Origin: Minisyncoccota bacterium
GTDB taxonomy: Bacteria > Patescibacteriota > Minisyncoccia > Phycocordibacterales > JAQTLZ01
Length of the DNA: 64,000 nt
NCBI GenBank assembly: GCA_028714635.1
Contig: JAQTLZ010000001.1
Coordinates: 173,272 to 237,271 of the forward strand
Reading direction: 5' to 3'
Part shown: positions 39,965 through 55,183 of the stretch, piece by piece
Layout: the number at the start of each line of letters is the position of its first letter
How positions within the stretch are numbered: position 1 is the stretch's first letter
Notes under the pieces: generated by a model
Seen by the model: the letters and a program-made list of their open reading frames with translations, nothing else
Database searches by the model: none
Told to the model about the DNA's origin: nothing
Position numbers and translations under genes: made by a program

Positions 39965-40639
39965 TTATGGCTTCTTAGGTCCTTTACCAACCAATCTCGC
40001 AAATGATTTTGCGATTGGTTCACCTTTATGAAAGACAAAAGTTCCTTCAACACCAAGTTCTTCTCTAATATCCCAGTAAAATCTTTCTATGCGGTTCGCT
40101 ATCTTCTTTGTAAAACGTGGGTCCACTTGAAAAATACCGTTAATATGGACGAAGCCATTCTCGTGGATATTTAGTTTTGTATTGAAGTGACCAACCTGAT
40201 TTCCTCTGGCACGGACTATCTGGTTTATTGATGCTTTTATACTATCCAGTCTTTTCTGGTAACGCTTACGCTTCTTTTCATCTTTGATGTGGTCAGTCAT
40301 CGTATAGAGCGATGATGTCTGCCTGTTTTCATCGAGAATTGTACCGAGAATGACAATCGCATCTCGTGAATAGACATCAACCATCGAAATAATAATGGTT
40401 AGACTTCGCTTCGGCTCATCTTCAGCAAAGTCATCTTTGTGTTTGCCAAGATACAGAATGAGGTCGGCTTGGTCTCGTAGACGATTGAGACAATCATAAA
40501 CATAATCACTTATGTTTCGTATCTTTCTTGTTTCGTCTATTACTGGTTTCTTTTTTGATTTCATATAGGTGAGGGTTTTGCTTCTTGTCTGCCCTGAGAA
40601 GTATTTGGAACGCTCCAACAATCCTATCTCTTTCTTCAT
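39965..40639 (-). CDS. hypothetical protein (last gene of the R-M/helicase operon)
   Basis: 224-aa ORF, basic, no recognised motif. Confidence 0.35.
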   Translation of the reverse strand: MKKEIGLLERSKYFSGQTRSKTLTYMKSKKKPVIDETRKIRNISDYVYDCLNRLRDQADLILYLGKHKDDFAEDEPKRSLTIIISMVDVYSRDAIVILGTILDENRQTSSLYTMTDHIKDEKKRKRYQKRLDSIKASINQIVRARGNQVGHFNTKLNIHENGFVHINGIFQVDPRFTKKIANRIERFYWDIREELGVEGTFVFHKGEPIAKSFARLVGKGPKKP

Positions 40640-40659
40640 TGGTCCAGTTCGGGACTTTA

Positions 40660-41142
40660 TTATTTTTTACTACCATTGATTTCCTTTATCATTTTCCAGC
40701 TCAATTCTTCGACCGTACCTAATTCATCCACAAAAAAGAGATACAGGTTCAATTTATCCATCACATCAAACGGCATCTTTCGTATGACCATTTTTCTGAA
40801 TGATGTAGGAAAAGCAACTCCGTATTTGTAGCCATACTTGTAACCTCTTGCTCCATTACGGTGCATTCTTGTCAGTATCTGTCCCAGTGCAGAGTTGAAG
40901 CTACTACTCTGGCTCCCTGAAGGGTTTATAACCTTTATTGAGGGGTCTCCTTTGGCTTCTATAAGCCAGTATCGTGCAAAGTTATTGTTTCGGACTTTTA
41001 TATCAACACCTTGCTCCCACAACTCCTTACTAGTTAGTGATTTGCTCCAGCCGTTTAGCTCAAGATGTCTAATGACAGACTTTTGTACAAAATCCTCTGT
41101 GATTATCTGTCTTTCTTTTTTGGTTGGTTTAGGGGTAATCAT
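40660..41142 (-). CDS. small PD-(D/E)xK-like nuclease-fold protein
   Basis: GVDIKV...WLIEAKG fits D...(E)xK restriction-endonuclease-like core; 160 aa from Met at 41142 (ORF opens at 41163 with GTG). Confidence 0.4.
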   Translation of the reverse strand: MITPKPTKKERQIITEDFVQKSVIRHLELNGWSKSLTSKELWEQGVDIKVRNNNFARYWLIEAKGDPSIKVINPSGSQSSSFNSALGQILTRMHRNGARGYKYGYKYGVAFPTSFRKMVIRKMPFDVMDKLNLYLFFVDELGTVEELSWKMIKEINGSKK

Positions 41143-41147
41143 AGAAT

Positions 41148-41171
41148 GGTTCACAACGTTCACATATTCAC
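41148..41171 (-). promoter_or_regulatory. triple GTGAA(C/T) direct repeat immediately upstream of the nuclease gene start
   Basis: Gene orientation: GTGAATATGTGAACGTTGTGAACCATTCTATG; 9-bp phasing. Confidence 0.45.
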
Positions 41172-42703
41172 TATGCGTTTATTTCTTCGATAAATCTCGA
41201 AGCTTTTCCTTTCCATAGTCGTGAACGTACATCAAACTTGAAGTCATCTTTGTTCACTGTGTTCACGTGCTTTCCTTCAATACTGATACTTGAGATGAGA
41301 TGCAGGGCTTTCTTTGCTCTTGTCATACCCACATAGAAAAGTCTTCGTTGGCTCTCAATAGTGTCGTTTCCTTTGGCACGATTTGGTATAACACCTTCAA
41401 TAAGACCAATCATAAACACGTGCTCCGCACCAAGTCCTTTCGACTTATGTATAGACATTATGTTTACTCGTTTTTCCACATCTTCCTCAATGAGCACGAA
41501 TAGGTTTTCAAGCTTTTCGTCTTCGGTATCACCCTCAGCATTGTTGTAGAAATCTGCTAGGTCTAGGAAATAAGGCTCCTGAAGTGCCGTATCAATATCT
41601 ACATATGTTGCTTTAGCTTCATTTGGAAGTTTGCTTGCGACCACACCAAATAGCTCTGCAAAGTCCTGTCCACTGGCATAGTGTTTCTTGATGGTCTCGT
41701 AGAGCTTCTTTCTTGATGACAAAACATTGTATCCAATCAATGCGAGATTGAGGTACTTATGCTTACCAAAAAGACTTCTCAGTACCCACGATTTCCTAAT
41801 GATTTCGGGCTCTACTTTAGCAACAAAATAGTTCTTGTAGTCGATACCAGAACCATCAAGTCGGTTAGTGAGGTTCTCCACGAGAAATCTCACAGGACTG
41901 AGTATCAGAACCTTCTCGTCAGTTGAAGCTCCAATGACCTTCTGGACCTCATCCAAGATATAGTCTGCCGTGTTGGTGTTTGAAGGAAACTGTTTTTGTA
42001 CAATAGTCCCAGCTTTACCTGTCTTCTCCCATTTTTTGTCTACTCGTTTTGTGTTGTTCTTTATCAGTTTCGTAGCACTATCTACCACACTGTCAGGACA
42101 TCTGTAGCACTTGTGTTCGTGCTCAAGCTTCTCGTGAGAAGGGTCTGAGTGGAGCGAAATAATCTTGTCGTTATCGGCATCTTTGAAGTCGTAGATACAC
42201 TGGTCATCATCACCAAGAATATAACTCTCGCTCATTACTTCTACGAGCAAATCAATGAGTTCTTGCTCATTTTTATTGAAGTCTTGGTATTCATCCACTA
42301 TCAATACGGAGTACGCTGAAAGCTTATCTTTGAGGTATGCAGGGTTTGATTTTGCATAGCTGACAAAGCGAGCAATCATCTGGTCAAAAGTTGTTGCTGA
42401 GAAGAAATTGCACAAATCATCGAACCCTATAGAAGTGCTTTTTGAGATTTGAGAAAGCTCACTAATCTCTAGCATATCGAGAACGTGCCTACTTTTGTCG
42501 TGATTGTATTTCACAGCAAACTTATGAAGGGTCATACAATTCTCAGGACTGACACCAATCGGTATCAGGGACTTCTTCAGGTCCTCAACAGTTGCGTTGG
42601 TAAAAGAGATAATCAAAACACCATCAAGATTTGGCTTTGATTGAATGATGTTCTTTATGTTTGTTGTTTTACCAGTCCCTGGTCCTGCGAGTAGTATTTT
42701 CAT
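41171..42703 (-). CDS. UvrD/PcrA-like superfamily 1 DNA helicase (short form)
   Basis: Walker A GPGTGKTT, motif II VDEYQD, motif III GDDDQCIY, motif V HKSKGLGAEHVF, motif VI YVGMTRAKKAL; 510 aa. Confidence 0.8.
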   Translation of the reverse strand: MKILLAGPGTGKTTNIKNIIQSKPNLDGVLIISFTNATVEDLKKSLIPIGVSPENCMTLHKFAVKYNHDKSRHVLDMLEISELSQISKSTSIGFDDLCNFFSATTFDQMIARFVSYAKSNPAYLKDKLSAYSVLIVDEYQDFNKNEQELIDLLVEVMSESYILGDDDQCIYDFKDADNDKIISLHSDPSHEKLEHEHKCYRCPDSVVDSATKLIKNNTKRVDKKWEKTGKAGTIVQKQFPSNTNTADYILDEVQKVIGASTDEKVLILSPVRFLVENLTNRLDGSGIDYKNYFVAKVEPEIIRKSWVLRSLFGKHKYLNLALIGYNVLSSRKKLYETIKKHYASGQDFAELFGVVASKLPNEAKATYVDIDTALQEPYFLDLADFYNNAEGDTEDEKLENLFVLIEEDVEKRVNIMSIHKSKGLGAEHVFMIGLIEGVIPNRAKGNDTIESQRRLFYVGMTRAKKALHLISSISIEGKHVNTVNKDDFKFDVRSRLWKGKASRFIEEINA

Positions 42704-42706
42704 AAT

Positions 42707-42730
42707 GGTTCACGATGTTCACTCATTCAC
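42707..42730 (-). promoter_or_regulatory. triple GTGAA(C/T) direct repeat immediately upstream of the helicase start
   Basis: Gene orientation: GTGAATGAGTGAACATCGTGAACCATTATG. Confidence 0.45.
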
Positions 42731-42733
42731 CAA

Positions 42734-45418
42734 CTACTTTGAGAATAGTCGGACCAGCTCATCGAAGTTCTTGGCTGGATTTTTTTCATAGTCTTCTTGT
42801 TTGACGTATAGAGCCTTGTAAACAACTCTACTTTGTCGAGCGTTTACGTCCTCACACCACTTTTGAAGTCTTTCAAACTTGATTTTGTCGTCCTCTTCTT
42901 CACGACCCTTTGTTTCAATGATGTACACCTGTTTCTCATCAACCTTCACAAAGAAGTCTGGGTAATAATTAGCGATAAAGCCTTCAGCATTCTTGTATTC
43001 AATACGGAGAGCAGTCGCTTCCTTGTTTTGGAAGTTCTTCGCAAACGAGATAGTGTCATCGCATTTTTCAAGGAAAGCAGAGAACTCAAGCTCAAAGTTA
43101 CTATCTCCCACAATTCGGTTGAATACGGATTTTTGAGGAATGAGGAACGCCTTATCATTTACCACAAAAGGGCGTGCATCACTTACCTTGATGTAGTTCT
43201 TGATTTCGGTATCACCCTTGTCTTGGACCGTTAGCTCGTTGATTGATTTCTTGAAGCCGTCTTTGATGAGTTTTATGTACTCAACTTCGGATAGGTTACG
43301 AAGAACATTCAGGTCTGTGAGCTCAACCTTGCTCTCAAACATATGGTTCTCAACAAAATCCTTCACTTTGCCAAAGAGGATGTCATAGCATCCGAATAGA
43401 CGCATTTCTCGCATTATTGCCTGTGCAAAGAAGCCAACGACACTCTGGTAGTTTGGTTCAATATCACCACTCAAAATCGTAGTGTGATGGACCGCTTCAG
43501 CAACCACATCTTTGAAGACAATTTCTCGTTTCTCTTGCTCACTGAACGTCTTTACCTGCACCTTCTCGTTTCCAAAAGTAGAAACATCCAAGTCAGCAAG
43601 ATTTTTGTACTCTCGCTGTATTCTGGCGGTCATTACAGGGATTTCAATATCCAGTTTTCCAATGTCCTTCTTGGTGTTCTCTTTATCAATCTCAATCACC
43701 ATAGGAGAAATAGGTTTTGAACCAGACCCCATCAAACGCTTTTCAAGGAGTACGCCTTCACCCTTGATACTCTCTACGAAGTCCATAAAGGCTGGAGTAC
43801 CGATAACACTCACGTATTCATCAATGTCATCTCTTCCAAAATACATTCTTCGGAGACCTCTACCAAGCGTTTGCTCAGGAAGGATTTTACTATCTGAAGC
43901 GTATGGTCGGAGACCAACAATAGTAGTTACGTTTTTTACGTCCCATCCTTCTTTGAGCATCATTACAGACACGATGACCTTGTAAGGACTTTCCCAGCTA
44001 TCAATCTCGTTCGATTGCTTTCGGAGTTGTTCAAGTTCTTCTTGATTTCTACCTGTTGTACTCTCAGAAATCTCACCACTCTTGTTCGTGTGAATAGTAA
44101 GGACCGCACCCTTTAGTTCAGGGTAGTTCATTTCAAGATACTGAGCGACATCATCACAGTTCTTGGTATCGTCAGTCATTATGAAGAGAAGGGACTTCTT
44201 GTTTGTAGGTAGGAGTTGTTCGTATGTCTTTCTCCATTCTTCAACACCAAGGTGAATGTGGTCTCTCCACTTCTCTGTGAATACAACGCTTTGACCTTCT
44301 TTGAGCTTTCCTCGACTTGCTTCGTCTGGCACAACTGGTTGCTTCACAACACGCTGGTGAATTGCTTCAACCAACGGATAGTCAGAAATAGTCTGTACGA
44401 AAATCGCACCTTTGTTGTTTTTAGGTGTTGCTGTTACGTCTAATTGGAGAGAAAGACCGCCACCTTTTTGCTTGAGTTTATTATCAATATCACGAATAGA
44501 TTTGAGCCACGCATTTTCTTCGTGGATATGGTGAGCCTCGTCATTGATAACAATAAGCTCATCAATATCTCGGACTACCATTCCTAAATCAACAGTTCCT
44601 TGATTTGTTTTAGTAACTGGCTTATCTCCAAGGAAATACTCAGAAGCATCCTCATCGTCTGCATCGTAATCTTTTACATCGCTTTCAAACACTCGGTGAA
44701 TGTTAGTGAGGAAAATGTTTCCAGTATCAGAGACGTTTTTGAGCTCATCTTGGAGGTGAAGTGTAATCTGGAAATCATCCTGCCAGTTTTGACCCATATA
44801 ACCGTTATCAGGAAGAACAGGGTCCAAGAAGAATATCTTGTTTCCTTCAAAGTCATTCTTGATACGCTCGAACACGATTACGTTTGGTGCGATGAGTAGG
44901 AAGTTCTTTGCGAGATTTGAGCCTTCTTCGTAGAGTTTATGGAAATACGCCCACGCAATCACCAAGCTCATTACCTTGGTCTTACCAGCTCCTGTAGCCA
45001 TCTTGATGACAAATCGGAGCCAATCCTCGGTGAACATCTGAGGGCTCAAAACGCCTGTAGAGTTGTAGCGTATCAAATCGTACTTATCCTTCACCTGAGC
45101 GACCTCGTAGAGCCATACAACGGTCTCCAGAGCCTCTCTTTGAGAGAAGTAGTATCGGAAGTTGTAGGATGTACCGTCCTGATTGTAGAGAGTGTGTTCT
45201 TCTTTGAACCACCACGTCAAAAGTGCTTTTGAGGTATCGCTAGCACCCTCATAATTATTATCTCGCCACGCTTTTACTTGCTTACGAAGTTCTGCAACGA
45301 GAGGAGGAATGAGCTTCTCAAATCCTTTTTCTCGAAGGTCCTCATCAGCAGGAAACCACCTAATTTCAGGATTGAGGATTGCGTATGGGTCTTTTGGAAA
45401 ATCTTTGTGTAGTGCCAT
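42734..45418 (-). CDS. res: type III restriction enzyme Res subunit (SF2 helicase + PD-(D/E)xK endonuclease)
   Basis: Walker A MATGAGKTKV, DEAHH motif II, helicase motif VI QTLGRGLRR, C-terminal YYPDF...IIETKG nuclease motif; 894 aa; directly follows mod. Confidence 0.85.
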   Translation of the reverse strand: MALHKDFPKDPYAILNPEIRWFPADEDLREKGFEKLIPPLVAELRKQVKAWRDNNYEGASDTSKALLTWWFKEEHTLYNQDGTSYNFRYYFSQREALETVVWLYEVAQVKDKYDLIRYNSTGVLSPQMFTEDWLRFVIKMATGAGKTKVMSLVIAWAYFHKLYEEGSNLAKNFLLIAPNVIVFERIKNDFEGNKIFFLDPVLPDNGYMGQNWQDDFQITLHLQDELKNVSDTGNIFLTNIHRVFESDVKDYDADDEDASEYFLGDKPVTKTNQGTVDLGMVVRDIDELIVINDEAHHIHEENAWLKSIRDIDNKLKQKGGGLSLQLDVTATPKNNKGAIFVQTISDYPLVEAIHQRVVKQPVVPDEASRGKLKEGQSVVFTEKWRDHIHLGVEEWRKTYEQLLPTNKKSLLFIMTDDTKNCDDVAQYLEMNYPELKGAVLTIHTNKSGEISESTTGRNQEELEQLRKQSNEIDSWESPYKVIVSVMMLKEGWDVKNVTTIVGLRPYASDSKILPEQTLGRGLRRMYFGRDDIDEYVSVIGTPAFMDFVESIKGEGVLLEKRLMGSGSKPISPMVIEIDKENTKKDIGKLDIEIPVMTARIQREYKNLADLDVSTFGNEKVQVKTFSEQEKREIVFKDVVAEAVHHTTILSGDIEPNYQSVVGFFAQAIMREMRLFGCYDILFGKVKDFVENHMFESKVELTDLNVLRNLSEVEYIKLIKDGFKKSINELTVQDKGDTEIKNYIKVSDARPFVVNDKAFLIPQKSVFNRIVGDSNFELEFSAFLEKCDDTISFAKNFQNKEATALRIEYKNAEGFIANYYPDFFVKVDEKQVYIIETKGREEEDDKIKFERLQKWCEDVNARQSRVVYKALYVKQEDYEKNPAKNFDELVRLFSK

Positions 45419-45422
45419 AGGA

Positions 45423-47582
45423 TTATAGTTTTACATCAATCACTCTGGTAGTGTCGTTACCGAAGATGTCCACGACCTTTACTGCAACTTTGTAGTCTCC
45501 CTTTGGAAGCTCTTTTGGTGCAGACTTGAACTCAAGATTTCTATTCTTCTTTGTACGGAAACTTTGCCATTCGTTGTCAAAGATATAGTCTCCAGTCCAA
45601 ACATCTTTTTCTTCACCGTCCTCAATAACCTTGATGATTTCTTTACGGTCCGCAAAGTTGTAATCAACCGCCCAGTAATCAATCCAGTCGCTCCACTTTT
45701 TTGTGAGGACCTCTCGTGATACAAGTTCGGTATCTTTGTCCTTTGTTACTTTCAATACCTGACCGTTTTCGATGATTACTTTTGACCTTCCAGCCTTTAG
45801 TTCTTCATCAATTGCACCATTGTCTTGGTTGTAGAAAACAGAGAAGTCAGTAATCTCAATTGAGAGTTCTTTCATTGAACCTCTACCAGTAATAATTGGT
45901 TTGATGTCGATGTAGGCAACGTCATAGAAGTTCACCTGACCACGCTCAACTGCACGCTTATCAAACACTTCACGTGGAATGATTTTGAAAGCAACATCAA
46001 TACCTTCGTCAGCATACTCACCAAAGTTCATTCCCATTTCGTAATCGAAACCGAGAACATCAATTTTAGTAAGATTTTTCTCCTTACACTCACTAACAAT
46101 TTCACGAATAAACTTTGAAGATACAGGAAGGTTGATAGGACCGATTGCTACCAATCTGTCTCGCTTCTTTCCTACAACGTGTGCGAAGCTCTCAACAGGT
46201 TCAGCTTTGTAGGCAGAGAGAATAAGCTTGATGAACTCTTTTTCTTTTCGGTCTGCTTGTTTTGCTTTCTCTTCAGCACGTAAGTCATCGTTAGTATTTA
46301 GGAAGCTTTCACGCTCGTATTTACCAACGTTCAATATCTCAAATGCACGGAAATCTTTTCCTGCTTTTTTGAGTTCACGTTGAATACCAACCATTCGCTT
46401 TCGAGAGGTGTGTATACCGAACTTACCTAGGTCAGTGCCTATCCACTTACGACCAAGTTTTTCAGCCGTTGCAATCGTTGTGCCTGAGCCAACAAAAAAG
46501 TCAGCTACTAAATCTCCCTCATTTGAGGAGGATTTTATAATTCTCTCTAGGAGGGCAGATGGTTTTTGTGTCGGGTAGTCTAGTCGCTCTTTTGACATCG
46601 AGTTTTCGTAAGGGATTTCCCACACATCGTTCGGTATCATTCCTTCCTCTGGATAGTAGGTTCTCCATTTACCTGCATCAAATCTTTTTCTACACACTTT
46701 TCCATTATCATCTTTATCCCTAAAGTGAGATTTTATGTATTCATCAGAGTAAGGAACACGAGCTCCTTTTTCGTTGAAGTACGTTTTGTTTGATTTTCCA
46801 TAGTAAAAAATAGTGTCGTGCTTTTGTGCAAACCTATCATCTGGTCTTCCTAGTGTTGAGTAATACCAAATAATTTCATTCCTGAAGTTTTCTTTTCCAA
46901 ATATCTCATCGAGCGACATTCTCATAAAAGCACTAACTCGCCAATCACAATGCACATAAATACTTCCATCTTCGGCGAGTAGCTCGTGCATCAACTTCAG
47001 ACGCTCGTAAATCATTGCAATAAAGCTGTCTGCACCTTTACCCCACGTATCACGATAGGCAATCTCTTCAATTACAGAGGGCTTCTTTGTGAAGCTGTCA
47101 TTTTCTTCACCAATTGAAATGTTCATTGAAAAGTCAGCTCCCACATCAAAAGGAGGGTCAATATAGATAAGTTTGAGACCCCCTTGAGCTTCAATCTCTT
47201 TTCGCATTGGACCGTTCTTGAGAGATGAGAGAATGAGTTTGTTATCTCCCCAGATTAGTTTGTTGGTCCAGCCAGTAATTTGCTTACCAGAGAAATCAAA
47301 CAACGTACCTTTGTCGCCAAACTCTTTACCTTCTCGTGGTTCATCAATCTGCTCAATTACTTGGAATGGAAGAACTACGTTTGTAACTTCGTTAGTCTTT
47401 CCATTCCAAACAAGCTCGACTTCACGGTCATCTTTGAAGAGAAGGAAGCGGTACTTTTCTGGAAGGGGTTTTCCAGCTTCGAGGAACTTCACAATGTCTC
47501 GCTTTTCGTTGTCAGAAAGATAGAGTGAGCCACTCTTGGTCTGTCCGTTCTTTTGTTGTTCGTTGTCTTTTTTCATATACAT
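45423..47582 (-). CDS. mod: type III R-M DNA methyltransferase Mod (beta-class N6A/N4C MTase)
   Basis: Motif IV IYIDPPFD precedes motif I FFVGSGTTIATAEKLGRKWIGTD (beta-class order); 719 aa. Confidence 0.85.
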   Translation of the reverse strand: MYMKKDNEQQKNGQTKSGSLYLSDNEKRDIVKFLEAGKPLPEKYRFLLFKDDREVELVWNGKTNEVTNVVLPFQVIEQIDEPREGKEFGDKGTLFDFSGKQITGWTNKLIWGDNKLILSSLKNGPMRKEIEAQGGLKLIYIDPPFDVGADFSMNISIGEENDSFTKKPSVIEEIAYRDTWGKGADSFIAMIYERLKLMHELLAEDGSIYVHCDWRVSAFMRMSLDEIFGKENFRNEIIWYYSTLGRPDDRFAQKHDTIFYYGKSNKTYFNEKGARVPYSDEYIKSHFRDKDDNGKVCRKRFDAGKWRTYYPEEGMIPNDVWEIPYENSMSKERLDYPTQKPSALLERIIKSSSNEGDLVADFFVGSGTTIATAEKLGRKWIGTDLGKFGIHTSRKRMVGIQRELKKAGKDFRAFEILNVGKYERESFLNTNDDLRAEEKAKQADRKEKEFIKLILSAYKAEPVESFAHVVGKKRDRLVAIGPINLPVSSKFIREIVSECKEKNLTKIDVLGFDYEMGMNFGEYADEGIDVAFKIIPREVFDKRAVERGQVNFYDVAYIDIKPIITGRGSMKELSIEITDFSVFYNQDNGAIDEELKAGRSKVIIENGQVLKVTKDKDTELVSREVLTKKWSDWIDYWAVDYNFADRKEIIKVIEDGEEKDVWTGDYIFDNEWQSFRTKKNRNLEFKSAPKELPKGDYKVAVKVVDIFGNDTTRVIDVKL

Positions 47583-47602
47583 TTGGTTGATTAGCTAATA
47601 AG

Positions 47603-47821
47603 TTACTTTGGCGACTGGACAAACTTTTCGAGGTCCTCTTTTTTATATCTTCTTGCTCTACGTTCACCAATTCGTATGGCAGGAAGTATGCCTTTCTTAT
47701 CCCATTGCCGAAGCGTGTTGGGATGACACTTGAGATAAGCAGATGCTTCTTCCAAAGTGAGAAGTTCTGGCAAATCCCCATCATTTTGCGGTGTTTTTTT
47801 CGTTGATTTCATACCTAACAT
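47603..47821 (-). CDS. small helix-turn-helix DNA-binding protein (excisionase/MerR-like)
   Basis: LTLEEASAYLKCHPNTLRQWDKKGILPAIRIGERRARRYKKEDLEKFV resembles Xis/AlpA-type HTH; 72 aa; leads the mod-res operon. Confidence 0.5.
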   Translation of the reverse strand: MLGMKSTKKTPQNDGDLPELLTLEEASAYLKCHPNTLRQWDKKGILPAIRIGERRARRYKKEDLEKFVQSPK

Positions 47822-47843
47822 TTGATAACATTATTATACATAA

Positions 47844-47878
47844 CCTTCACAACGTTCACAATGTGCACGGACCGTGAA
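47844..47878. promoter_or_regulatory. GTGAAC-type repeat cluster in the divergent intergenic region between the HTH gene and the 431-aa gene
   Basis: ccTTCACaacGTTCACaatGTGCACggaccGTGAAaacc; adjacent TATGTATAAT (minus-strand sense) could be the HTH promoter. Confidence 0.45.
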
Positions 47879-47889
47879 AACCAATGTAA

Positions 47890-49185
47890 ATGTATATGAG
47901 TAGCCTCAAAACCACTGAGAAGAAGATACTTGAAAAGCTTTTCAATATGGAAGGTGGCTATGTGCTGAGTTTTACTGATAAATCATTCGAGAAGTTCCTC
48001 AAAGATGACTTCAATATCTCGGTCTACAGTGAGATGTACGACTTGGACTTTCCAAGTAAATCAAAAGCAAACCGACTACGTGGTATCTGGAGTGTAGAAG
48101 ATGATGCGAAAGTTGGAGGTATTATTTTGGAACTTGTTGAGTGTGCGGAGACCGACATTTTGACATCAGGCAAAGAGATGTCTGCTATTGAAAAGGACCT
48201 TACTTCAAAGGCACGTGATATAGGGATACGCTTACTGTTTACAGAAATTGCTGACGGAAGCACCAAACCAGAAGTTCAGAAGCTGAAGACTAAGGCTGAA
48301 CTCATAAAGGGTTTCAATAGTATTGATTTCAAGGAGATGGAGCCTAACAAGCGTATCTATCTGCTAAAGGTTCTGTTCTCTTACTACGATGCGATTATTC
48401 GTGCATACAGAGGCTCAGGATTGTTCTATCTCACATCAGGCATTGATGACCTCAATGACTATTTCAAGGTCCTCAGAAAGCGAATGATTGAGCTACTCGA
48501 TACATACGACACTTTTGTTGAAATGAAGAAGTCGCCCACTTATACGGACTTCATTGAGCCTGTAACAAGCCTTTACGCAAGTCAGGACTATCTTGAAGTC
48601 GTGTGGGAAGAAAGCGTGCTCCCTATGCTCATCAATTTCCGTGAAGACATAGCTGATAGAGACCTGTTTGATAATCAGTCAGAAGTTCACAAAGTTCACG
48701 TTGAGGTGTTGAGCTTTTTGGATGCTATCTCAAAAGAGATTGAGGCTCTCAATGGGTATATGAGCCAGCAAACAAAGAAGTTCTACGATACTGACCTACC
48801 AGCAGAGAAAGAAAGGCTATCCAATATCTTTCCATCCGAAGAGCTATACATCACAAAACAAGGTGATGATTTTCGATACAAAGGAAAGCTACTGAACCTC
48901 TCGAAGAAAGCCGACTACTACAAAGTTTTTTGTGCTTTATACGCACTCCTTCCGCAAGGTGGAGAAATTGAATACAAGCCTCTTATAACTGAAATCAAAA
49001 GCAGAATACCGAAGACCAAAGCGAAGTCTGACGAAGAAATGCGAAAGCTTATACAAGGTAATCTCACTGATAAAAGCAACGGCTTTATCCGCTATGCAAA
49101 ACTGCCAAATACGGAGGACAATTCCAAGCCACTCATCGAAGTTATAAAGGGCTTTGGAGTGCGTTTCAACAATAAAGCTGGCTAA
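47890..49185 (+). CDS. hypothetical protein
   Basis: 431 aa, acidic, begins MYM; no recognised motif. Confidence 0.4.
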   Translation: MYMSSLKTTEKKILEKLFNMEGGYVLSFTDKSFEKFLKDDFNISVYSEMYDLDFPSKSKANRLRGIWSVEDDAKVGGIILELVECAETDILTSGKEMSAIEKDLTSKARDIGIRLLFTEIADGSTKPEVQKLKTKAELIKGFNSIDFKEMEPNKRIYLLKVLFSYYDAIIRAYRGSGLFYLTSGIDDLNDYFKVLRKRMIELLDTYDTFVEMKKSPTYTDFIEPVTSLYASQDYLEVVWEESVLPMLINFREDIADRDLFDNQSEVHKVHVEVLSFLDAISKEIEALNGYMSQQTKKFYDTDLPAEKERLSNIFPSEELYITKQGDDFRYKGKLLNLSKKADYYKVFCALYALLPQGGEIEYKPLITEIKSRIPKTKAKSDEEMRKLIQGNLTDKSNGFIRYAKLPNTEDNSKPLIEVIKGFGVRFNNKAG

Positions 49186-49224
49186 TCCTGAAACTTCCTG
49201 AGAATAGATAAGTTCTCCTGACTA

Positions 49225-49259
49225 AAACACCTTTGAAATAAAGGGTGTTTTTTCGTTTT
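49225..49259 (+). terminator. rho-independent terminator
   Basis: aaacaccttt gaaata aagggtgttt then ttttcgtttt. Confidence 0.75.
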
Positions 49260-49361
49260 CCTGAATGTTCAGGAAGTACGCAGAACAATCTCAAAAAGCA
49301 AAAATCAATCTATAGAACTTTTCTTGGCGGAAGTTCACTTACTCATAAAACACCAATGTAA

Positions 49362-49664
49362 ATGATTATGAAAAGAAACAATGAGAGCGATGAGCTCCAC
49401 AACGTCCCTTTGGACGATTACAAAAACTATTACTACTCGAACGATATTGATGTCGCATCAACCCTCATATGTAAAGGATATGAATTGGTAGACATCACAC
49501 CGATAAGCCACAACAAGGCTACCTTCGTATTCAAAAATCATCCTGCAATTACGGATGCGGTTGAAGGCTTTTGGAGCAATCGAATTGAGGTCCGACCTCT
49601 TGAGTTCGCTAACGTCAGAAAAAATCTGAAATCACGCATCTTCGGAATGCGGAAAACTTACTAG
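49362..49664 (+). CDS. small hypothetical protein typical of mobile-element replication modules
   Basis: 100 aa; YYSNDIDVASTLICKGYELVDITPISHNKATFVFKNHPAITDAVEGFWSNRIEV resembles a small family I recall from phage/ICE loci; low certainty. Confidence 0.35.
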   Translation: MIMKRNNESDELHNVPLDDYKNYYYSNDIDVASTLICKGYELVDITPISHNKATFVFKNHPAITDAVEGFWSNRIEVRPLEFANVRKNLKSRIFGMRKTY

Positions 49665-49676
49665 CCCATAAATGAA

Positions 49677-51032
49677 ATGTATATGCAAAACAAAGAAGAA
49701 AGACAAGAAAAAATTATCCTGAAGACAAGTATCACAACGCCAAACGAGCTCTACGAAATGGTGTTTGACCGAAGTGAAAACAAAACCTCTTTCATAAAAA
49801 TTGATAGAGATGGAAAAATTGAGACCCTGCTGGAAGAGGTGGAAATTGGCGGAAGAAAGTATCGACCACTTCCATCTGATTACAACCTCGTGGACAAGAA
49901 CGTCATCTTGTTTCCATCACTTGCTACACCTTATGAAAGCGAGGAAGAAATACTCACTGAAGTACAGCATTTTATCCATAAACACCTAGACATCTCTGAG
50001 GTATTCGAGCGTATAGCTACTTACTACGTTCTGTTTACGTGGCTATTCGACAAGTTCAATGAGGTCCCGTATCTACGAGCAATTGGTGATTTTGGAAGCG
50101 GTAAATCACGCTTTCTCCAAGCTATCGGAATACTCTGCTACAAGCCTGTATTTACTGGAGGTGCGACTACTCCAAGTCCGATATTCCGCATCATCAATGA
50201 GGTAAAAGGAACGCTCATCATAGACGAAGCTGACTTCAAGTTCTCGGATATGACATCAGAGATTGTGAAGATATTGAACACTGGATACCAGAAAGGAATG
50301 TCCGTGCTTCGTTCTGAAGGAAAAGGGACCTTTGAAGTAAAAGCCTACGATGTATTTTGTCCGAAAATTGTAGCCACTCGTGAGACCTTCGCTGACAAGG
50401 CACTTGAGAGCCGATTTCTCGTTGAAGAAATGGGTGCTGGAAAGTTGCGTACCGACATCCCACGCACTCTTGATGAGAGCTTTTATGAGGGTGCTGAATT
50501 GATACGAAACAAGCTCCTGATGTGGCGACTGAAGAACTACTTTGAGCCGATAGAACGTAGGCACGATTTGATTGAAGGAATACATCCACGACTGAACCAA
50601 ATCGTTATGCCACTTTTATCCATCATCAAAGACGAGAGTATCAGAAATCAGCTCAAGACTTTCATTGTTCAATACAACGCTGAACTGGTAGCAGACCGTG
50701 GTCTTTCGTGGGAAAGCGACATTGTTTTTGCAGTCCTGAAATTGGAGTACGAATTGAAAGGAAACGAGCTAACAGTCAAACAGATTACTGACGAAGTGAA
50801 CAAGGAAATAGATGTAAGCGATGACACCCTACAGGCTCGAAAAGTCGGGTGGTATTTACGAGCAAAACTACAACTCAAGCCTTATAAAACTCGAAAAGGA
50901 TACGTACTTTCTTTCAAGGAAAACAGGAAGCGATTGGATATGTGGAAGGAACGCTTTGGTATCACCGATGCGGATATTCGTGGTGAACAAGTGAATGTCG
51001 TGAACGATGCTGAAGCTATTACCAATAACTAA
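49677..51032 (+). CDS. P-loop NTPase, probable replication/primase-associated protein (VirE/D5-like)
   Basis: Walker A AIGDFGSGKS, Walker B LIIDEADF, about 130 aa N-terminal domain before the P-loop; 451 aa. Confidence 0.45.
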   Translation: MYMQNKEERQEKIILKTSITTPNELYEMVFDRSENKTSFIKIDRDGKIETLLEEVEIGGRKYRPLPSDYNLVDKNVILFPSLATPYESEEEILTEVQHFIHKHLDISEVFERIATYYVLFTWLFDKFNEVPYLRAIGDFGSGKSRFLQAIGILCYKPVFTGGATTPSPIFRIINEVKGTLIIDEADFKFSDMTSEIVKILNTGYQKGMSVLRSEGKGTFEVKAYDVFCPKIVATRETFADKALESRFLVEEMGAGKLRTDIPRTLDESFYEGAELIRNKLLMWRLKNYFEPIERRHDLIEGIHPRLNQIVMPLLSIIKDESIRNQLKTFIVQYNAELVADRGLSWESDIVFAVLKLEYELKGNELTVKQITDEVNKEIDVSDDTLQARKVGWYLRAKLQLKPYKTRKGYVLSFKENRKRLDMWKERFGITDADIRGEQVNVVNDAEAITNN

Positions 51033-51041
51033 ATCATTCTT

Positions 51042-51554
51042 ATGGAAAACAAGTCAAAAGGTGGTCCAAAAACAACTGAAGGAAAGGCAATCTCGAAGTA
51101 CAACGCAATCAAACACGGATTGCTCTCAAAAGAGGTGCTTGTTGATGGTGAAGATGAGAAGACACTCCTAGAACTCAATCAAAGCGTACACGACCAATTT
51201 CAGCCAGTAGGACCGATAGAAAAGATGCTGGTAGACCGTGTTGTATCAAATCTCTGGAGACTACGAAGAGCTGTCTTTGTCGAGACTGCAACGATGAACT
51301 GGTATCGAGCTGACATCAATCTCTTTCCAATTGGACAGGATGATGAGCAACAAGAACGACAGAACGTAAAGAATATGTTGAGCAACGAAAGTATCGAGAC
51401 CATTCTTCGATACGAGACAACCATTGAAAGAAGCATCTTCAGGGCTCTTCACGAGCTTGAGCGTATACAGGCTAAAAGAAACGGGAAAGACGTTTCAATT
51501 CCAGCCGTGGTCGATGTAAACGTGGATAGTTCGTTTCGCAAAAATGACCAATAA
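51042..51554 (+). CDS. hypothetical protein
   Basis: 170 aa, helical, no motif. Confidence 0.35.
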   Translation: MENKSKGGPKTTEGKAISKYNAIKHGLLSKEVLVDGEDEKTLLELNQSVHDQFQPVGPIEKMLVDRVVSNLWRLRRAVFVETATMNWYRADINLFPIGQDDEQQERQNVKNMLSNESIETILRYETTIERSIFRALHELERIQAKRNGKDVSIPAVVDVNVDSSFRKNDQ

Positions 51555-51569
51555 CAGTGAGGTTCTCAA

Positions 51570-52211
51570 TTGATTTCGGAAGATAAAAACATTATGAGTA
51601 AAACAGAAGCAGATGACTGCAAGAAAATAGAAATATGGTGGCTCCTGCGAGACATCAAGGAGAAAGGTGGTTACAAATACACCACTGTTTCTTGGGGTGA
51701 AAATGGTTCACACGGAAGCGTATCTGTGCAGGTATCTGTATGGGACGAAGAAAAATACGCTCGCTTTATTTACTCGCAAACTGACCATTCTACAGGTGAA
51801 AAGAAGGACTTCGACTACAAGGTCCCCATCATCACCACACCTTGTCATCTAGGTGGAGAACGATATTGGTTCAAGTGCTCTCTATTCAAAAACGGAGAGC
51901 AATGTGGACGACGTGTTGGTGTGCTCTACAAAGATGGTGATTGGTTCGGTTGTCGTCATTGTTACGAGCTCACCTACAAATCAAAAAACGTAAACAAGGG
52001 GTACAAACACTATCCGATGTTTCGAGTTCTTGAGCTAAGGATGGAAATAGACAGGCTCGAAGAGAAGTCACATCGACACACATACAACGGAAAACCAACC
52101 AAGAAGCGGATGCGACTAGAAAAGCTTTATCGAGAAGCAATGCTCCAGCATCGTGCTTTTTACGAGACTGAAAAAGGTCTCAAAGTCAGCAAAAAAGGTC
52201 GAGAGTTCTAA
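51570..52211 (+). CDS. hypothetical protein with Cys-rich zinc-ribbon-like region
   Basis: CHLGGERYWFKC...CGRRVG...CRHC pattern; 213 aa. Confidence 0.35.
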   Translation: MISEDKNIMSKTEADDCKKIEIWWLLRDIKEKGGYKYTTVSWGENGSHGSVSVQVSVWDEEKYARFIYSQTDHSTGEKKDFDYKVPIITTPCHLGGERYWFKCSLFKNGEQCGRRVGVLYKDGDWFGCRHCYELTYKSKNVNKGYKHYPMFRVLELRMEIDRLEEKSHRHTYNGKPTKKRMRLEKLYREAMLQHRAFYETEKGLKVSKKGREF

Positions 52212-52225
52212 TCAAAAATGTTATT

Positions 52226-52468
52226 ATGAGTAAGTTACACGAAAGCCTGAATAATGCTCCGCAACCGCAACCTTCCAAGGAGCAGGACCAGCTTTTGTGT
52301 GAAGGTCCAAAGCACCTGCTCTCGAAAGATACCCTTGATGCTTTGGAAGAACTCGGTGGTGTTCTCAGGAACATTCACAGGAGAATGGTATCTGAAGGAT
52401 ACGAAATTGTAGATGGAAACATCCGCAAAGTAGTACCGCAAAATGTAAATGTATATGAAAAAGCCTAA
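52226..52468 (+). CDS. hypothetical small protein
   Basis: 80 aa; overlaps the recombinase start by 20 nt. Confidence 0.3.
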   Translation: MSKLHESLNNAPQPQPSKEQDQLLCEGPKHLLSKDTLDALEELGGVLRNIHRRMVSEGYEIVDGNIRKVVPQNVNVYEKA

Positions 52469-54146
52469 TATCAAAACTGAAAAAGATTTGATTGCCGAAA
52501 TACTCTCTGGTAAATACCGTGATTGTCATTTGATATATAACAGAAAGAGTACGGACGAAGCTGACAACCAGAAGAACTCCATTTCATATCAAAAGATAGA
52601 GAACACTCGTTTTGCACATCGAGAAAAACTTTCCATAGCACAAATCACCATCAAAGGTTTCTCTGCTGACGGCATCATTTCCGAAAAGCACTCAGGGTTT
52701 ACTGAGGACGATGATATAAACATTACCGATGACGGTTTGGTTCAATACAGAATTGATAGACCAAAGTTCCAGAGAATGCTTCAGTTCGTTAGCCAAGGGT
52801 ATTTCAAAGGTGTCGTATGTCTTTGTTGGGACCGTATCAGTAGAAATAAAGGAGATGACACTCTTATCCGAAAGCTTATGCGTAAGGGTGTAGATTTTCG
52901 CTTTGTATACGCTAAATACGAGAAGACAAGTTCAGGTGCTCTTCATATGGATATTGATGGAATGTTCTCTCAACATCACTCACGTGTTACAAGTGAGAAA
53001 GTAACGCTCACCATCCGTAACTCACGAGAGAAAGGCATATGTACTTACAGAGCACCAATCGGCTATCTCAATCAAGGGAAAATGGAAGATAAACCACTAG
53101 ACCCATTCCGTGCACCCATAATCAAGCAGATGTATGAGTATTACGCTACAGGAGACTGGAGCCTGTCAGACATTGCTCGCTTTGCAAATGACCAAGGTTT
53201 TACCACAGTACCGATGAGGCGTAGAAGGACAAAAGAAGAAATGCTCGCTGAGGAAGACGAGTTTGAGGAAATAGAAAAGACCTCACGTCCTGTAAACGAA
53301 AACCATATCAGCAGAATACTTACTAATCGCTTTTATACAGGAAGGACCCTCAACTCAGAAGGTAAATATATCCAAAGTATCAGCCACGTAGCTATCGTAA
53401 GCGATGAGCTCTTTGATGACGTTCAGGCTGTGCTCAAAAAGAAGAAAGTGAGCGTTCACTATACGGAAAAACTCGACCAGCCACTTCGAGGTGTTGTACG
53501 TTGTGCACATTGTGAACGTGTATACACACCATACATAAAGAAAGGTATTCAATACTACAATTCACGCTGTACAAAAGACTGTAAGAATACGGACAAGAAC
53601 TTGAGTTTTGAGAAGATTGATAAGAAAATCAGTGGACTTATTACAGGTCTGCATTTTACCGATGACGAAATAGAACAGATGGATGCTCGTGCAGGTACAG
53701 AGATTGCGTTGCTCGAAGAGAAGCGTCATAAAACACTCGACCAAGTAGAGAGAAAAAAGAAAAAGATACGAGAAGACCTTGCATACCTACGCTCGAACAA
53801 AATACCTCTCTTGAAGGCTGGAGTGTATACACCTGAGAGTTATGTTACCGAGGAAACAAAACTTGATAGTGAACTTTCTTTGTTGCAGAGCGAAGAGCAA
53901 GCATCAGACATCGCAATGCACGAGACAATGAAAGAGGTTCAAAAACTTTCAGAACTCGTCAAAAACGTTGCTCTATATTATCAATTCGCAAAACCACACG
54001 AAAAAGAGCAGATTGTTCGTGTAATCTTTTCAGAACTTTCTATTGCTCAAGATGTGTTGCAATTCAAGGTCAAAAAAGGATTTGAAGCCTTTGAAAACCG
54101 TTTCCTTGCTATTTGTGACCCTACAGAGAATCGAACTCTGATTTGA
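52449..54146 (+). CDS. large serine recombinase
   Basis: Resolvase catalytic domain with Ser in YNRKSTDEADNQ and CLCWDRISRN (RxSR-like) motif, recombinase domain, C-terminal Cys4 zinc ribbon CAHCERV...CTKDCK; 565 aa. Confidence 0.85.
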   Translation: MYMKKPNIKTEKDLIAEILSGKYRDCHLIYNRKSTDEADNQKNSISYQKIENTRFAHREKLSIAQITIKGFSADGIISEKHSGFTEDDDINITDDGLVQYRIDRPKFQRMLQFVSQGYFKGVVCLCWDRISRNKGDDTLIRKLMRKGVDFRFVYAKYEKTSSGALHMDIDGMFSQHHSRVTSEKVTLTIRNSREKGICTYRAPIGYLNQGKMEDKPLDPFRAPIIKQMYEYYATGDWSLSDIARFANDQGFTTVPMRRRRTKEEMLAEEDEFEEIEKTSRPVNENHISRILTNRFYTGRTLNSEGKYIQSISHVAIVSDELFDDVQAVLKKKKVSVHYTEKLDQPLRGVVRCAHCERVYTPYIKKGIQYYNSRCTKDCKNTDKNLSFEKIDKKISGLITGLHFTDDEIEQMDARAGTEIALLEEKRHKTLDQVERKKKKIREDLAYLRSNKIPLLKAGVYTPESYVTEETKLDSELSLLQSEEQASDIAMHETMKEVQKLSELVKNVALYYQFAKPHEKEQIVRVIFSELSIAQDVLQFKVKKGFEAFENRFLAICDPTENRTLI

Positions 54147-54187
54147 GCCTTGAGAAGGCTCCGTCCTGACCGTTAGACGATAGGGCC
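54116..54187 (-). tRNA. tRNA-Glu (anticodon CUC); 3' part overlaps the recombinase gene end; one acceptor-stem mismatch
   Basis: Reverse complement GGCCCTATCGTCTAACGGTCAGGACGGAGCCTTCTCAAGGCTCAAATCAGAGTTCGATTCTCTGTAGGGGTC; D-arm and anticodon loop TTCTCAA closely resemble bacterial tRNA-Glu; acceptor pair 2:71 is G:G. Confidence 0.55.
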
Positions 54188-54217
54188 GCACACGCGGAGA
54201 ATACTAACATTTTTCTC

Positions 54218-55183
54218 CTATTTGGCAAAAAACGCCATAAATTTCATTGGGTCAATTGAGATGTCGTTGATTCTTACTGTGATGTGAAGATGCGGACTTT
54301 CTGCGTAGCCGGTTTGGCCAGAGAGAGCAATTGTCTGTCCGATGTTTACTTTCTCTCCCACTTTCACATTTATTTTTGAGAGATGCATGTAAATGCTCAT
54401 AAGCCCGAGACCGTGGTCAATGACGACAGTGTTTCCGTAAATTTGGTATAACCTTGCGATTCTTACAATTCCTGTATTCATTGCGAGTACCGGTGTCCCT
54501 TCGTCTGCATGGAAATCCGTGCCTTTATGATTGATCGCTTCACCGACGGTTTGACGAACGTAGCCGTAATCGTCAGTAACAGTTATCTTGCCTGCGAGCG
54601 GGAACCGGAAAGGCACTGTCCAAAGCGCTGTGCTTGCCGTTTTAATGCCGAGGAGGGTTTGGCTTTCCTGCGCCATAGTGCTAATGACATTCGTTACTGC
54701 TTCTTCTGTGTTTCCCCCAAGTTTTTCTGGAATGCCAAGCGGGGCTTCGACTTTTGGACGTATGCCGATGGTTATATTTTTTTCAAGTTTTTCTCCGGTA
54801 GTTAAAGTTGCGAGAAGTTTGTAAGTTCCAGGTTTCTGATTGAGATCGATACCGATCAAAGCACTCGGTTCCGATTTGTATGAAAATACTCCTAAAAATT
54901 TTCCATCGAAAGAAATATTTTTAATTTCCGGCAAGTCGGCGCTTTTTATTTGTACTAGGATTGGTTCTCCTTGAATGATTTTGGCTGGCGTGATTGAAAT
55001 AGACGGAGCGGGGGTCGGGTTTGCTCTCGGAGTTGAAACAGGGGATGGTGTGGAGGAAATGGTTGGGGTAGGGGATATCGTCGGTGCAATAATCGGAGTG
55101 ACAGAGGCGGAATTTTTTTCCAAAAGGAAAAAAATTCCGCCAAGGACTAGAACCGCGACAAATATCTTTACTACGAAGCTCAT
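54218..55183 (-). CDS. M23 family metallopeptidase (LytM-like) with TM anchor and PT linker
   Basis: HKGTDFHADEGTPV (HxxxD) and SPHLHITV (HxH) motifs; 321 aa. Confidence 0.8.
   Translation of the reverse strand: MSFVVKIFVAVLVLGGIFFLLEKNSASVTPIIAPTISPTPTISSTPSPVSTPRANPTPAPSISITPAKIIQGEPILVQIKSADLPEIKNISFDGKFLGVFSYKSEPSALIGIDLNQKPGTYKLLATLTTGEKLEKNITIGIRPKVEAPLGIPEKLGGNTEEAVTNVISTMAQESQTLLGIKTASTALWTVPFRFPLAGKITVTDDYGYVRQTVGEAINHKGTDFHADEGTPVLAMNTGIVRIARLYQIYGNTVVIDHGLGLMSIYMHLSKINVKVGEKVNIGQTIALSGQTGYAESPHLHITVRINDISIDPMKFMAFFAK

Follow-up and report, generated by a model that had tools for sequence, protein, structure and literature searches.

The 64,000-nucleotide (nt) stretch analysed here, called the window below (positions 173,272 to 237,271 of contig JAQTLZ010000001.1, Minisyncoccota bacterium assembly GCA_028714635.1), carries a large serine recombinase gene whose 3′ end runs into a tRNA-Glu gene with anticodon CUC. 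This overlap is very probably the attR junction of a 14.2-kb integrated element of the Patescibacteria. As read from the sequence, the serine recombinase of the element would have integrated it at the 3′ end of an intact tRNA-Glu(CUC) gene, using an attP that lies in the recombinase gene itself. An earlier note on this DNA had described the overlap, and its account was confirmed: the recombinase open reading frame (ORF) at 52449-54146 ends with a TGA stop codon (54144-54146) inside the tRNA, and 31 nt (54116-54146) are common to the two genes in antisense, the ORF ending in ...AICDPTENRTLI and the stop. The suggestion in that note of an attachment-site junction also holds, the site being the attR of the integrated element. 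The features discussed are collected in Table 1.

In the integrated, hybrid form of the recombinase, residues 1-556 are native and residues 557-565 (DPTENRTLI) derive from the antisense strand of the tRNA acceptor stem and T arm, the D codon straddling the core. At the left boundary of the island, in the frame and on the strand of the recombinase, the sequence reads tgt gaa ccc att gcg tgg ctt tca gaa ctt ..., i.e., C followed by EPIAWLSELTKQRQYIGLAVEKLEALMAS and a stop. This native tail starts with EPIAWLSEL and ends with MAS (...EALMAS). When position 54118 is joined to 39891, an in-frame ORF of 585 amino acids (aa) is obtained, which ends in ...AICEPIAWLSELTKQRQYIGLAVEKLEALMAS; the rebuilt tail resembles those of intact homologs, such as P0090 (...AICDPIAWLSELYRYRAYIRDKIYELEKL). 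Furthermore, a hidden Markov model (HMM) built only from the intact tails of other loci matched positions 39892-39972 with E = 1.5e-8. Since the joined boundaries give an in-frame ORF, the sequence places attP inside the recombinase gene, where integration would exchange the last 29 residues of the protein for nine residues read from the antisense of the tRNA.

To describe the arms of the att sites, consensus sequences were built from 36 attR junctions, 26 displaced tails and 23 intact genes of related loci. The P arm consensus, ...TTTGAAAACCGTTT..TTGCT.TTTGT, encodes FENRF.A.C, and the P arm of the window encodes ...FENRFLAIC. The P′ consensus is GA.CC.....G.GTGGCTTTC.GAACT, in which CTT is the fixed codon for Leu and GAA that for Glu; the fixation of synonymous positions suggests constraint at the DNA level. 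The B′ consensus, GACCCTAC.G.GAATCGAAC, is the sole conserved half of the target, and the B arm, which is the tRNA trailer and the left flank of attL, is unconserved past tttGT. An imperfect inverted repeat, ∼16 nt away from the core in both directions, is made up of TTTGAAAACC of the P arm and GGCTTTCAGAA of the P′ arm. In P′, a TC(A)GAAC-like motif is 4-5 nt more distant from the core than it is in B′. In known serine integrases (LI/A118) the motif for the zinc-ribbon domain is placed differently in the attP and attB half-sites, and the offset observed here resembles that difference, by analogy.

When more than 20 attL/attR pairs were compared by position, only positions -2 to +2 matched in essentially all of them (GTGA, 54115-54118, in the window), and the pairs share only a few bases around GT↓GA(C)CC. 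The first base after the core is A at attL and C at attR. From this comparison we infer that the crossover falls within GTGA, and its dinucleotide would most likely be the GT at 54115-54116, i.e., the discriminator A73 and the first trailer base on the tRNA strand. A crossover to the right of the A/C difference (CC, 54120-54121) was also considered and rejected: it would imply an original C3-U70 mismatch, and the empty site of a relative (locus L088, see below) has G70. The reconstructed attP reads ...CTTGCTATTTGTGAACCCATTGCGTGGCTTTCAGAAC..., with ...CGTTTCCTTGCTATTTGTGAACCCATTGCGTGGCTTTCAGAACTT... as the predicted junction of the circle. A dyad scan of this attP gave no more than a weak symmetry: 11 of 28 positions agreed, about a centre 1-2 nt to the left of the predicted crossover, and the central dinucleotide is not fixed by the scan. 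The att sites are short, with a 5-bp core and no long direct repeats at the ends of the island, as is typical of serine integrases. In loci L026, L056, L020, L021 and L047 the junction codon is GGT (Gly) rather than TGT (Cys), and the adjoining tRNA-Glu ends in ...GGGTCACC(A); in these elements a CCA-like 3′ end seems to come in part from the P arm.

Domains, motifs and fold all identify the enzyme as a large serine recombinase. Pfam searches detected the Resolvase (PF00239, E = 6.9e-15) and Recombinase (PF07508, E = 1.1e-13) domains, and a PHROG integrase family matched the protein with 189 bits. The catalytic motifs IYNRKSTDE (R32, S34, D36) and WDRISRN (D128, R129, R132), as well as the zinc-ribbon cysteines C352, C355, C374 and C378, are invariant in an alignment of 27 homologs. 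A search of solved structures with the single recombinase sequence gave no match, and a search with a profile retrieved only the catalytic domain of TP901-1 (E = 0.003). With such weak sequence matches, a fold search was needed to place the recombinase. An AlphaFold model was made for the intact homolog P0065 (mean pLDDT, the predicted local distance difference test score, of 74.7; long helices at residues 403-511). With the full-length model, Foldseek retrieved the serine integrase-att complexes 9y66, 9dxh, 9rah (PhiC31), 9iu2 (Bxb1) and 4kis (LI), with a best E = 1.7e-15 over ∼590 columns and 13-16% identity to the solved integrases. The ratio of nonsynonymous to synonymous substitution rates (dN/dS) between the window recombinase and nine other integrated copies is 0.02-0.08, which indicates purifying selection, so that the gene is not decaying.

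In the P0065 model, residues 550-556, the counterpart of the crossover codons, are disordered, and residues 560-578, which correspond to the WLSEL tail, are helical. According to this model, integration would remove the linker and the terminal helix, and the catalytic, recombinase, zinc-ribbon and coiled-coil parts would be kept. It is close to an even chance that the structural account is right and that the exchange of tails nevertheless has no function, the in-gene attP being an accident of compaction and the hybrid and full-length enzymes behaving alike. This possibility is nested in the structural account rather than exclusive of it, and the confidences expressed in this work are not normalised. 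The position of the swapped segment, after the predicted disordered linker behind the last elements of the zinc-ribbon domain, is consistent with a neutral exchange, as are the hybrid tails, whose sequence changes freely with that of the tRNA and which may have 9 or 19 residues, and the native tails, which are poorly conserved past WLSEL. However, W-L-S-E-L and the helical periodicity are kept in intact genes across phyla, an argument weakened in turn by the fixed synonymous positions, since the conservation of WLSEL may reflect the DNA site. We regard a regulatory function of the tail swap as a tentative proposal, and a rather doubtful one.

Through homologs of the flanking penicillin-binding protein (PBP) gene, an unoccupied site was found in a Ca. 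Pacebacteria metagenome-assembled genome (MAG; GCA_028711065.1, locus L088), whose PBP is 94% identical. The gene order there is PBP, tRNA-Glu(CUC) and an M23 peptidase gene. After the PBP stop codon, L088 reads ATAGATTTGAACTGTGA directly followed by CCCTACCGGGAGTCGAAC..., matching the attB predicted by deleting 39891-54118 from the window, for which the expected junction is ...GGTAGATTTGAACTGTGACCCTACAGAGAATCGAAC...; at the junction itself L088 has ...GATTTGAACTGTGA joined to CCCTACCGGG..., as in the predicted attB. The two loci are collinear, the left 200 nt being 90% identical and the tRNA 87%, with identity still high farther on, and the acceptor stem GGCCCUA/UAGGGUC is kept. An uninterrupted attB between collinear flanks in a relative is one of the marks of an integrative genetic element, and the island fits that definition, its attL, attR and int being identifiable.

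A circular form was recovered from a relative. Contig L086, a MEGAHIT assembly of 9,440 bp with a 141-bp terminal overlap, represents a circle of ∼9.3 kb, and L087, an independent contig from another sample, is 100% identical and spans the join of L086. The backbone order of the circle is DUF5659, an unassigned ORF, a 211-aa ORF, an 82-aa ORF and the recombinase, and there is no tRNA. Its recombinase, P0065, is 71% identical to that of the window and intact, with the tail ...GAPTAWLSELFGLRGDIKKAVSDLVF followed by a stop. The cargo adjoining the backbone is a 634-aa reverse transcriptase (Pfam RVT_1).

The arrangement recurs throughout the family. A protein search yielded 893 homologs, the best 120 of which were examined (61-96% identity, mostly from Parcubacteria/Paceibacteria MAGs). 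Among these 120, 82 end in ...C/G-DPTGNRT..., with or without 10 further residues, which is what the antisense of the tRNA acceptor stem and T arm encodes. Another 13, longer by 20-30 residues, have the ending ...C-D/E-P-x-x-WLSEL.... In a species survey, in which one genome per species was scanned with the 27-homolog alignment, 80 loci were obtained. The ORF runs into a tRNA-Glu gene in 39 of them, nearly all from Patescibacteria (25 UUC and 14 CUC anticodons), and into tRNA-Leu, -Val or -Ala in four; the tail is intact, with no adjoining tRNA, in 23, and it is cut or otherwise different in the remaining 14. With the intact-tail HMM, at least 20 of the tRNA-joined loci were found to have a displaced tail 5.5-11.7 kb upstream of the recombinase and on its strand.

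These data bear on the reading that the overlap is coincidental, a resident or domesticated recombinase that happens to abut a tRNA, with an island that is immobile or was formed by another mechanism. The many homologs that are intact in chromosomes of other phyla with no adjoining tRNA would fit such a reading, and so would the failure to recover an excised form of this island among the metagenome contigs scanned for the attB pattern. We nevertheless consider it very improbable: the junction falls at the same tRNA position in 43 of the 80 species loci, the in-frame tail is located exactly at the other boundary, the point at which the window rejoins the host flank seen in the empty site, a circular relative exists, and no tyrosine integrase or transposase was found in the island by Pfam and PHROG scans.

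Close relatives of the window recombinase reveal which side of the junction belongs to the element. The recombinases of L003-L005 are 97-99% identical to it at the amino acid level (full-length tblastn alignment) and that of L006 is 88% identical; L003-L005 lie at different tRNA-Glu genes in unrelated neighbourhoods. In L003-L006 the last 60 nt on the left of the core match the window in full (100%), although the gene-wide synonymous divergence (dS) is 0.27-1.1; the tRNA is 79-89% identical, and the sequence beyond is unrelated, at the level of random sequence. The break in identity coincides with the core, so in each of these loci the tRNA belongs to the host.

A crossover inside the tRNA, with an element that brings its own tRNA 3′ half and restores the gene imperfectly, as the earlier note had proposed and as is usual for tyrosine-integrase islands, is most improbable on this evidence. 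It would account for the 31 nt of tRNA 3′ end overlapped by the recombinase ORF, and the T stems do differ, being CAGAG/CUCUG in the window and CCGGG/CCCGG in L088. But the tRNA contains no mismatch, the L088 differences are spread over the tRNA, including the D loop and positions 26 and 43, far from the crossover, and the acceptor stem is shared by the empty site. Recombinases that are 97-99% identical lie beside four different T arms, with the break exactly at the core. In addition, the C that follows the core at attR is needed for the C3-G70 pair, hence it is host DNA; attL has A at this place. Nor is there a tRNA fragment at the far end of the island, where the remnant is the displaced recombinase 3′ end: for the degenerate tRNA copy that the earlier note had suggested looking for near 39878-39964, the best local alignment scored 14, a value reached by 317 of 500 shuffles. 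In the window as a whole, no direct repeat of the tRNA 3′ end was detected at up to three mismatches in 26 nt, and general repeat finding gave nothing relevant.

The tRNA-Glu gene itself has the properties of a functional gene. ARAGORN predicted six tRNAs in the window, among which the sole tRNA-Glu is the CUC gene (54115-54187, minus strand), in agreement with the statement that the window has no other. With a score of 60.2 bits (gathering score 29) and E = 4.9e-12, the whole of 54116-54187 matched all 71 positions of the Rfam tRNA model, and cmscan flagged no non-canonical pair, every pair being canonical or G·U. The G:G mismatch previously assigned to positions 2:71 was a misreading of the 3′ strand, which is UAGGGUC and not TAGGGGT. 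The acceptor stem GGCCCUA/UAGGGUC thus pairs as G1-C72, G2·U71, C3-G70, C4-G69, C5-G68, U6-A67 and A7-U66. The G2·U71 wobble is present in all of the ∼50 tRNA-Glu genes of related loci, whether or not occupied by an element and including the empty site of L088. The gene has a cloverleaf fold of -30.4 kcal/mol (z = -4.8 relative to shuffles), a T loop UUCGAUU, a 7-bp acceptor stem and a Glu anticodon, and it does not encode the CCA end.

Two findings had been named beforehand as telling against the earlier reading of this tRNA: a high-scoring canonical tRNA call with another boundary, and an identical tRNA-Glu in genomes that lack the element. The call is indeed canonical, with a boundary that is essentially unchanged. 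The exact 72-nt sequence had no match in the contigs of species-representative genomes, and a weaker form of the second finding came from L088, whose tRNA-Glu(CUC) is 87% identical over 69 nt and has the same acceptor stem. That the tRNA is a pseudogene, or a decayed copy disrupted by the element, is scarcely credible, because only the misread G:G pair would favour it, and it is contradicted by the 60.2-bit match and stable cloverleaf, the acceptor stem as in ∼50 relatives, the promoter-like site upstream and the orthologous position kept in L088. By its sequence, the tRNA-Glu is a normal, intact host gene. With a crossover at the discriminator A73 and the next base, the mature tRNA would be host DNA either wholly or except for its last 1-3 nt, which attP matches anyway.

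Table 1. Coordinates of the recombinase gene, att sites, tRNA and other features of the island (positions in the window)
Feature	Position	Strand	Remarks
Large serine recombinase gene, hybrid (integrated) form, 565 aa	52449-54146	+	Pfam Resolvase and Recombinase
Displaced native 3′ end of the recombinase gene, 29 codons and stop	39889-39978	+	EPIAWLSELTKQRQYIGLAVEKLEALMAS and stop; P′ arm of attP plus the sequence coding for the terminal helix
attR core TGTGA	54114-54118		Same pentamer at attL; identity breaks here
attL core TGTGA	39886-39890		In L088, host flank GATTTGAACTGTGA meets tRNA CCCTAC directly
P arm of attP/attR	54072-54116	+	Codes for ...KKGFEAFENRFLAIC; holds TTTGAAAACC
P′ arm of attP/attL	39891-39915	+	ACCCATTGCGTGGCTTTCAGAACTT; TGGCTTTC.GAACT is nearly invariant DNA, including synonymous positions
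B′ arm of attB/attR (tRNA acceptor 3′ strand and T arm)	54117-54140	+	GACCCTACAGAGAATCGAACTCTG; attR consensus GACCCtACgGgGAaTCGAACcCcG
tRNA-Glu (anticodon CUC)	54116-54187	-	Canonical, host-derived; ARAGORN, Rfam, fold, L088 orthologue
Promoter-like site TTGCCA, 16 nt, TG-TAGTAT	54201-54228	-	13 nt upstream of the tRNA 5′ end; consensus scan
Integrated island, 14,228 bp	39891-54118		TGTGA boundaries; absent from syntenic L088
Cargo region	39965-49185		ORFs of unknown function, helicase, type III restriction-modification; Pfam, PADLOC
Two cargo ORFs with no assignment, 167 and 224 aa	39965-40639 (224-aa ORF)	-	
GajB-like UvrD helicase	41171-42703	-	140 bits; no recognisable GajA
Type III restriction-modification Res	42734-45418	-	
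Type III restriction-modification Mod	45423-47582	-	394 bits to PADLOC MTase_III
431-aa ORF with no assigned function	within 39965-49185		
Backbone	49362-54146	+	Conserved ORFs and recombinase
DUF5659	49362-49664	+	Homologs in 18 loci (tblastn)
451-aa P-loop protein	49677-51032	+	Homologs in 25 loci (tblastn)
170-aa ORF	51042-51554	+	
213-aa ORF	51570-52211	+	Homologs in 27 loci (tblastn)
80-aa ORF	52226-52468	+	Overlaps the recombinase start; homologs in 67 loci (tblastn)

The island is flanked by mraW, ftsL and the PBP transpeptidase gene (end at 39877) on the left and by an M23 peptidase gene (54218-55183) on the right. Its GC content is 0.39-0.44 over ∼40.0-54.0 kb (0.39-0.42 for 40001-50000) and that of most flanking kb is 0.43-0.48, a weak contrast with overlapping ranges. 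The last 14 nt of the displaced tail (39965-39978) overlap the 3′ end of the convergent 224-aa cargo ORF. Genes for Res and Mod are found again, at 73-87% identity, in the L014 and L076 islands, and more distant Mod homologs are present in nine further loci; the islands seem to act as carriers of defence genes. Homologs of the backbone genes in related loci were always found upstream of the recombinase (tblastn), and those of the 80-aa ORF lie directly upstream of it in intact and integrated forms alike. The 80-aa ORF had no match in Pfam, PHROG or PADLOC, and a promoter-like site is located near it (52199-52227); it is a candidate directionality factor, partner or regulator. A prophage was ruled out as an explanation of the island, since IMG/VR viral contigs contained no relative of the recombinase and PHROGs gave no matches for the backbone ORFs; no structural gene was matched in PHROGs either.

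Several related loci have arrangements of their own. In L021 (tails at ∼0, 1322 and 2173) and L025 (3364, 3969, 4945 and 6139), a tandem array of displaced tails, spaced by 0.6-1.3 kb, lies upstream of one recombinase that is joined to tRNA-Glu; the array looks like the scars left by repeated integration at this tRNA and later decay. A second tail of the WLSE type, with the same core, was observed in L029 (6671), L058 (9611), L067 (14022) and L074 (8835), which have intact recombinases of the Bacteroidota type; it lies on the same strand 1.6-3.9 kb downstream, after non-recombinase DNA. These second tails may represent a cassette in the in-gene site, or nested insertions. A third class of C-terminus, ...C-E/D-E-I/L-L/I-T-L/F-ARTYF-E/Q..., occurs in L039 (11640-11713; complete chromosome CP060229.1), L034, P0038, P0064, P0076 and P0087. 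Downstream of it in L039 an Rfam search was empty, with no tRNA; this class may correspond to another conserved integration target or to an alternative native tail. Finally, in L089, whose PBP is 83% identical, the tRNA-Glu(CUC) is on the opposite strand (3208-3280), and a 16-nt direct repeat of the tRNA 3′ end (CCCGGTAGAGTCACAA) is found ∼180 bp downstream (∼3441-3456), the kind of scar classically left by another element, of the tyrosine-integrase type, at this tRNA.

A number of points weigh against the integrated-element account, or limit it. The empty site comes from a related species, and its tRNA differs at 9 of 69 positions (87% identity). When metagenome contigs were scanned for the exact attB pattern (PBP end, 5-20 nt, tRNA 3′ end) no match was obtained, and neither an excised circle nor an empty site of this exact element or strain was found among the contigs scanned with the exact attB and 72-nt tRNA patterns. 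About 23 homologs, mostly from Bacteroidota and Proteobacteria, are intact inside large chromosomal contigs; the in-gene attP may therefore not be family-wide, or those copies may lie in unresolved structures. Antisense read-through rests on consensus matches only: apart from the promoter-like site of the tRNA, on the minus strand a terminator-like site is first encountered at 53261-53244, ∼0.85 kb into the recombinase gene, and the consensus scan for promoters and terminators is weak evidence, its matches being fewer than expected from shuffles. Statements on recombination, on its central dinucleotide and on how active the 565-aa hybrid would be are predictions from sequence.

The sequence comparisons show where the island ends, that its tRNA is host DNA, that attP is in the gene, that the C-terminus is exchanged, that a relative has a circular form with an intact gene, and that the arrangement recurs across Patescibacteria. 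The integrated-element account leads to the following model. The enzyme would bind attP in its own gene and the tRNA-Glu gene's 3′ end, with an attB composed of the tRNA acceptor stem and T arm (B′) and the unconserved 3′ trailer (B), and would cut at GT (A73/+1), exchanging strands as known for serine integrases, which make double-strand breaks with a 2-bp stagger, rotate their subunits and require a directionality factor for excision. The mature tRNA sequence would be unaltered by integration, its 3′ trailer being replaced with recombinase coding DNA. The last 29 native codons lie 14 kb away, at the other end of the island, and the integrated gene reads into the antisense of the tRNA up to the first stop, giving DPTENRTLI as its end. 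Excision would rebuild the 585-aa gene on the circle. We infer that the target is recognised mainly through the tRNA half-site, which would explain the use of both tRNA-Glu isoacceptors, of occasional other tRNAs, and the tandem arrays of remnants. The tail swap, antisense read-through from the promoter-like site of the tRNA, or both may tune the activity of the recombinase after integration.

The system shares with phiC31, Bxb1, A118/LI, SPbeta and TP901-1 an RxS and DRxxR catalytic domain, the recombinase domain, a four-Cys zinc ribbon and coiled-coil helices. As in the phiC31-type serine integrases, the att core is very short, attP has outer inverted motifs, the full-length fold matches DNA complexes, and a small conserved ORF, where a directionality factor could be encoded, lies beside the gene. 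Unlike those systems, it has the 3′ end of a tRNA gene as its target, a single conserved half of attB, and attP within the integrase ORF. Targeting of tRNA 3′ ends was reported as not previously known for serine integrases, except for 14 of 297 computational cases (PMC7192596), and Mageeney et al. consider that these 14 need experimental proof (PMC7192596).

An att site inside the integrase gene, which integration interrupts, is described as unique to SSV-type tyrosine integrases of archaeal viruses (PMC5861418). The window system resembles the SSV1 and SSV2 integrases of Sulfolobus fuselloviruses in having the att site inside the integrase ORF, so that the gene is partitioned. The SSV1 target is also a tRNA gene. 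However, the SSV enzymes are tyrosine integrases of archaeal viruses, and here a serine enzyme belongs to a non-viral island in a bacterial host; the SSV gene is cut into two large parts, whereas the window gene loses no more than the last 29 of its 585 codons and still encodes a complete catalytic and DNA-binding protein. The window system is thus an analogue of the SSV type and not a member of it.

A C-terminus that depends on the state of integration is also a trait of mycobacteriophage BPs and its relatives, with their integration-dependent immunity, in which attP is placed in the 3′ end of the repressor gene, the protein from the integrated form being shorter at its C-terminus and lacking an ssrA-like tag (PMC4557955). 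In the window it is the recombinase itself that is affected and not a repressor, and the BPs enzyme is a tyrosine integrase. No degradation tag is evident in the window tail (...EALMAS), and 5 of ∼33 intact tails of the family end in -AA. The latter are ...LCPAA, ...IDRAA, ...IEEAA, ...LDEAA and ...LKLAA, in P0081/L029, P0082, P0089, P0094 and L075, and are reminiscent of ssrA-like tags.

In their small size, tRNA-adjacent position, tRNA-proximal integrase, variable defence cargo and tandem remnants, the elements are like Islander-type islands and tycheposons. They differ from these in having no duplicated tRNA 3′ segment, a 5-bp core, a crossover that falls at the discriminator and not in the anticodon or the T loop, and an enzyme of another family; of the 937 tycheposons of Prochlorococcus, a large serine recombinase is present in 27 (bioRxiv 10.1101/2020.12.28.424599). 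No published account of this recombinase family, or of its behaviour in Patescibacteria, was found in a literature search of incomplete coverage. An island with a large serine integrase is a known kind of element, and the variant with a tRNA-discriminator target and an in-gene attP appears to be undescribed and widespread. We put forward, as a possibility with less than even prospects, that these enzymes form an undescribed, Patescibacteria-wide integrase class, which would recognise its chromosomal target essentially by one half-site, the acceptor stem and T arm of tRNA-Glu, cut at the discriminator, and use an in-gene attP that removes a C-terminal amphipathic helix.

The object of interest at this junction is the recombinase gene rather than the tRNA. 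The DPTGNRT tail on ∼80 of the best 120 recombinase clusters is an artefact of integration, and the true C-terminus is encoded at the other end of the island. In practical terms, attP, attB, attL and attR are defined for a natural platform of 9-14 kb that carries restriction-modification or reverse transcriptase cargo, in a host group with almost no genetic tools and with the target tRNA-Glu in every genome. Genes for tRNAs have not been counted among the targets of serine integrases (PMC7192596), and here a whole clade uses them across the Patescibacteria. If the tail swap is functional, the free and integrated forms of the element would make different proteins, and the swap could serve as a built-in sensor of the integration state, setting directionality, stability or expression with less than full dependence on a separate factor; antisense read-through from the tRNA could reinforce it.

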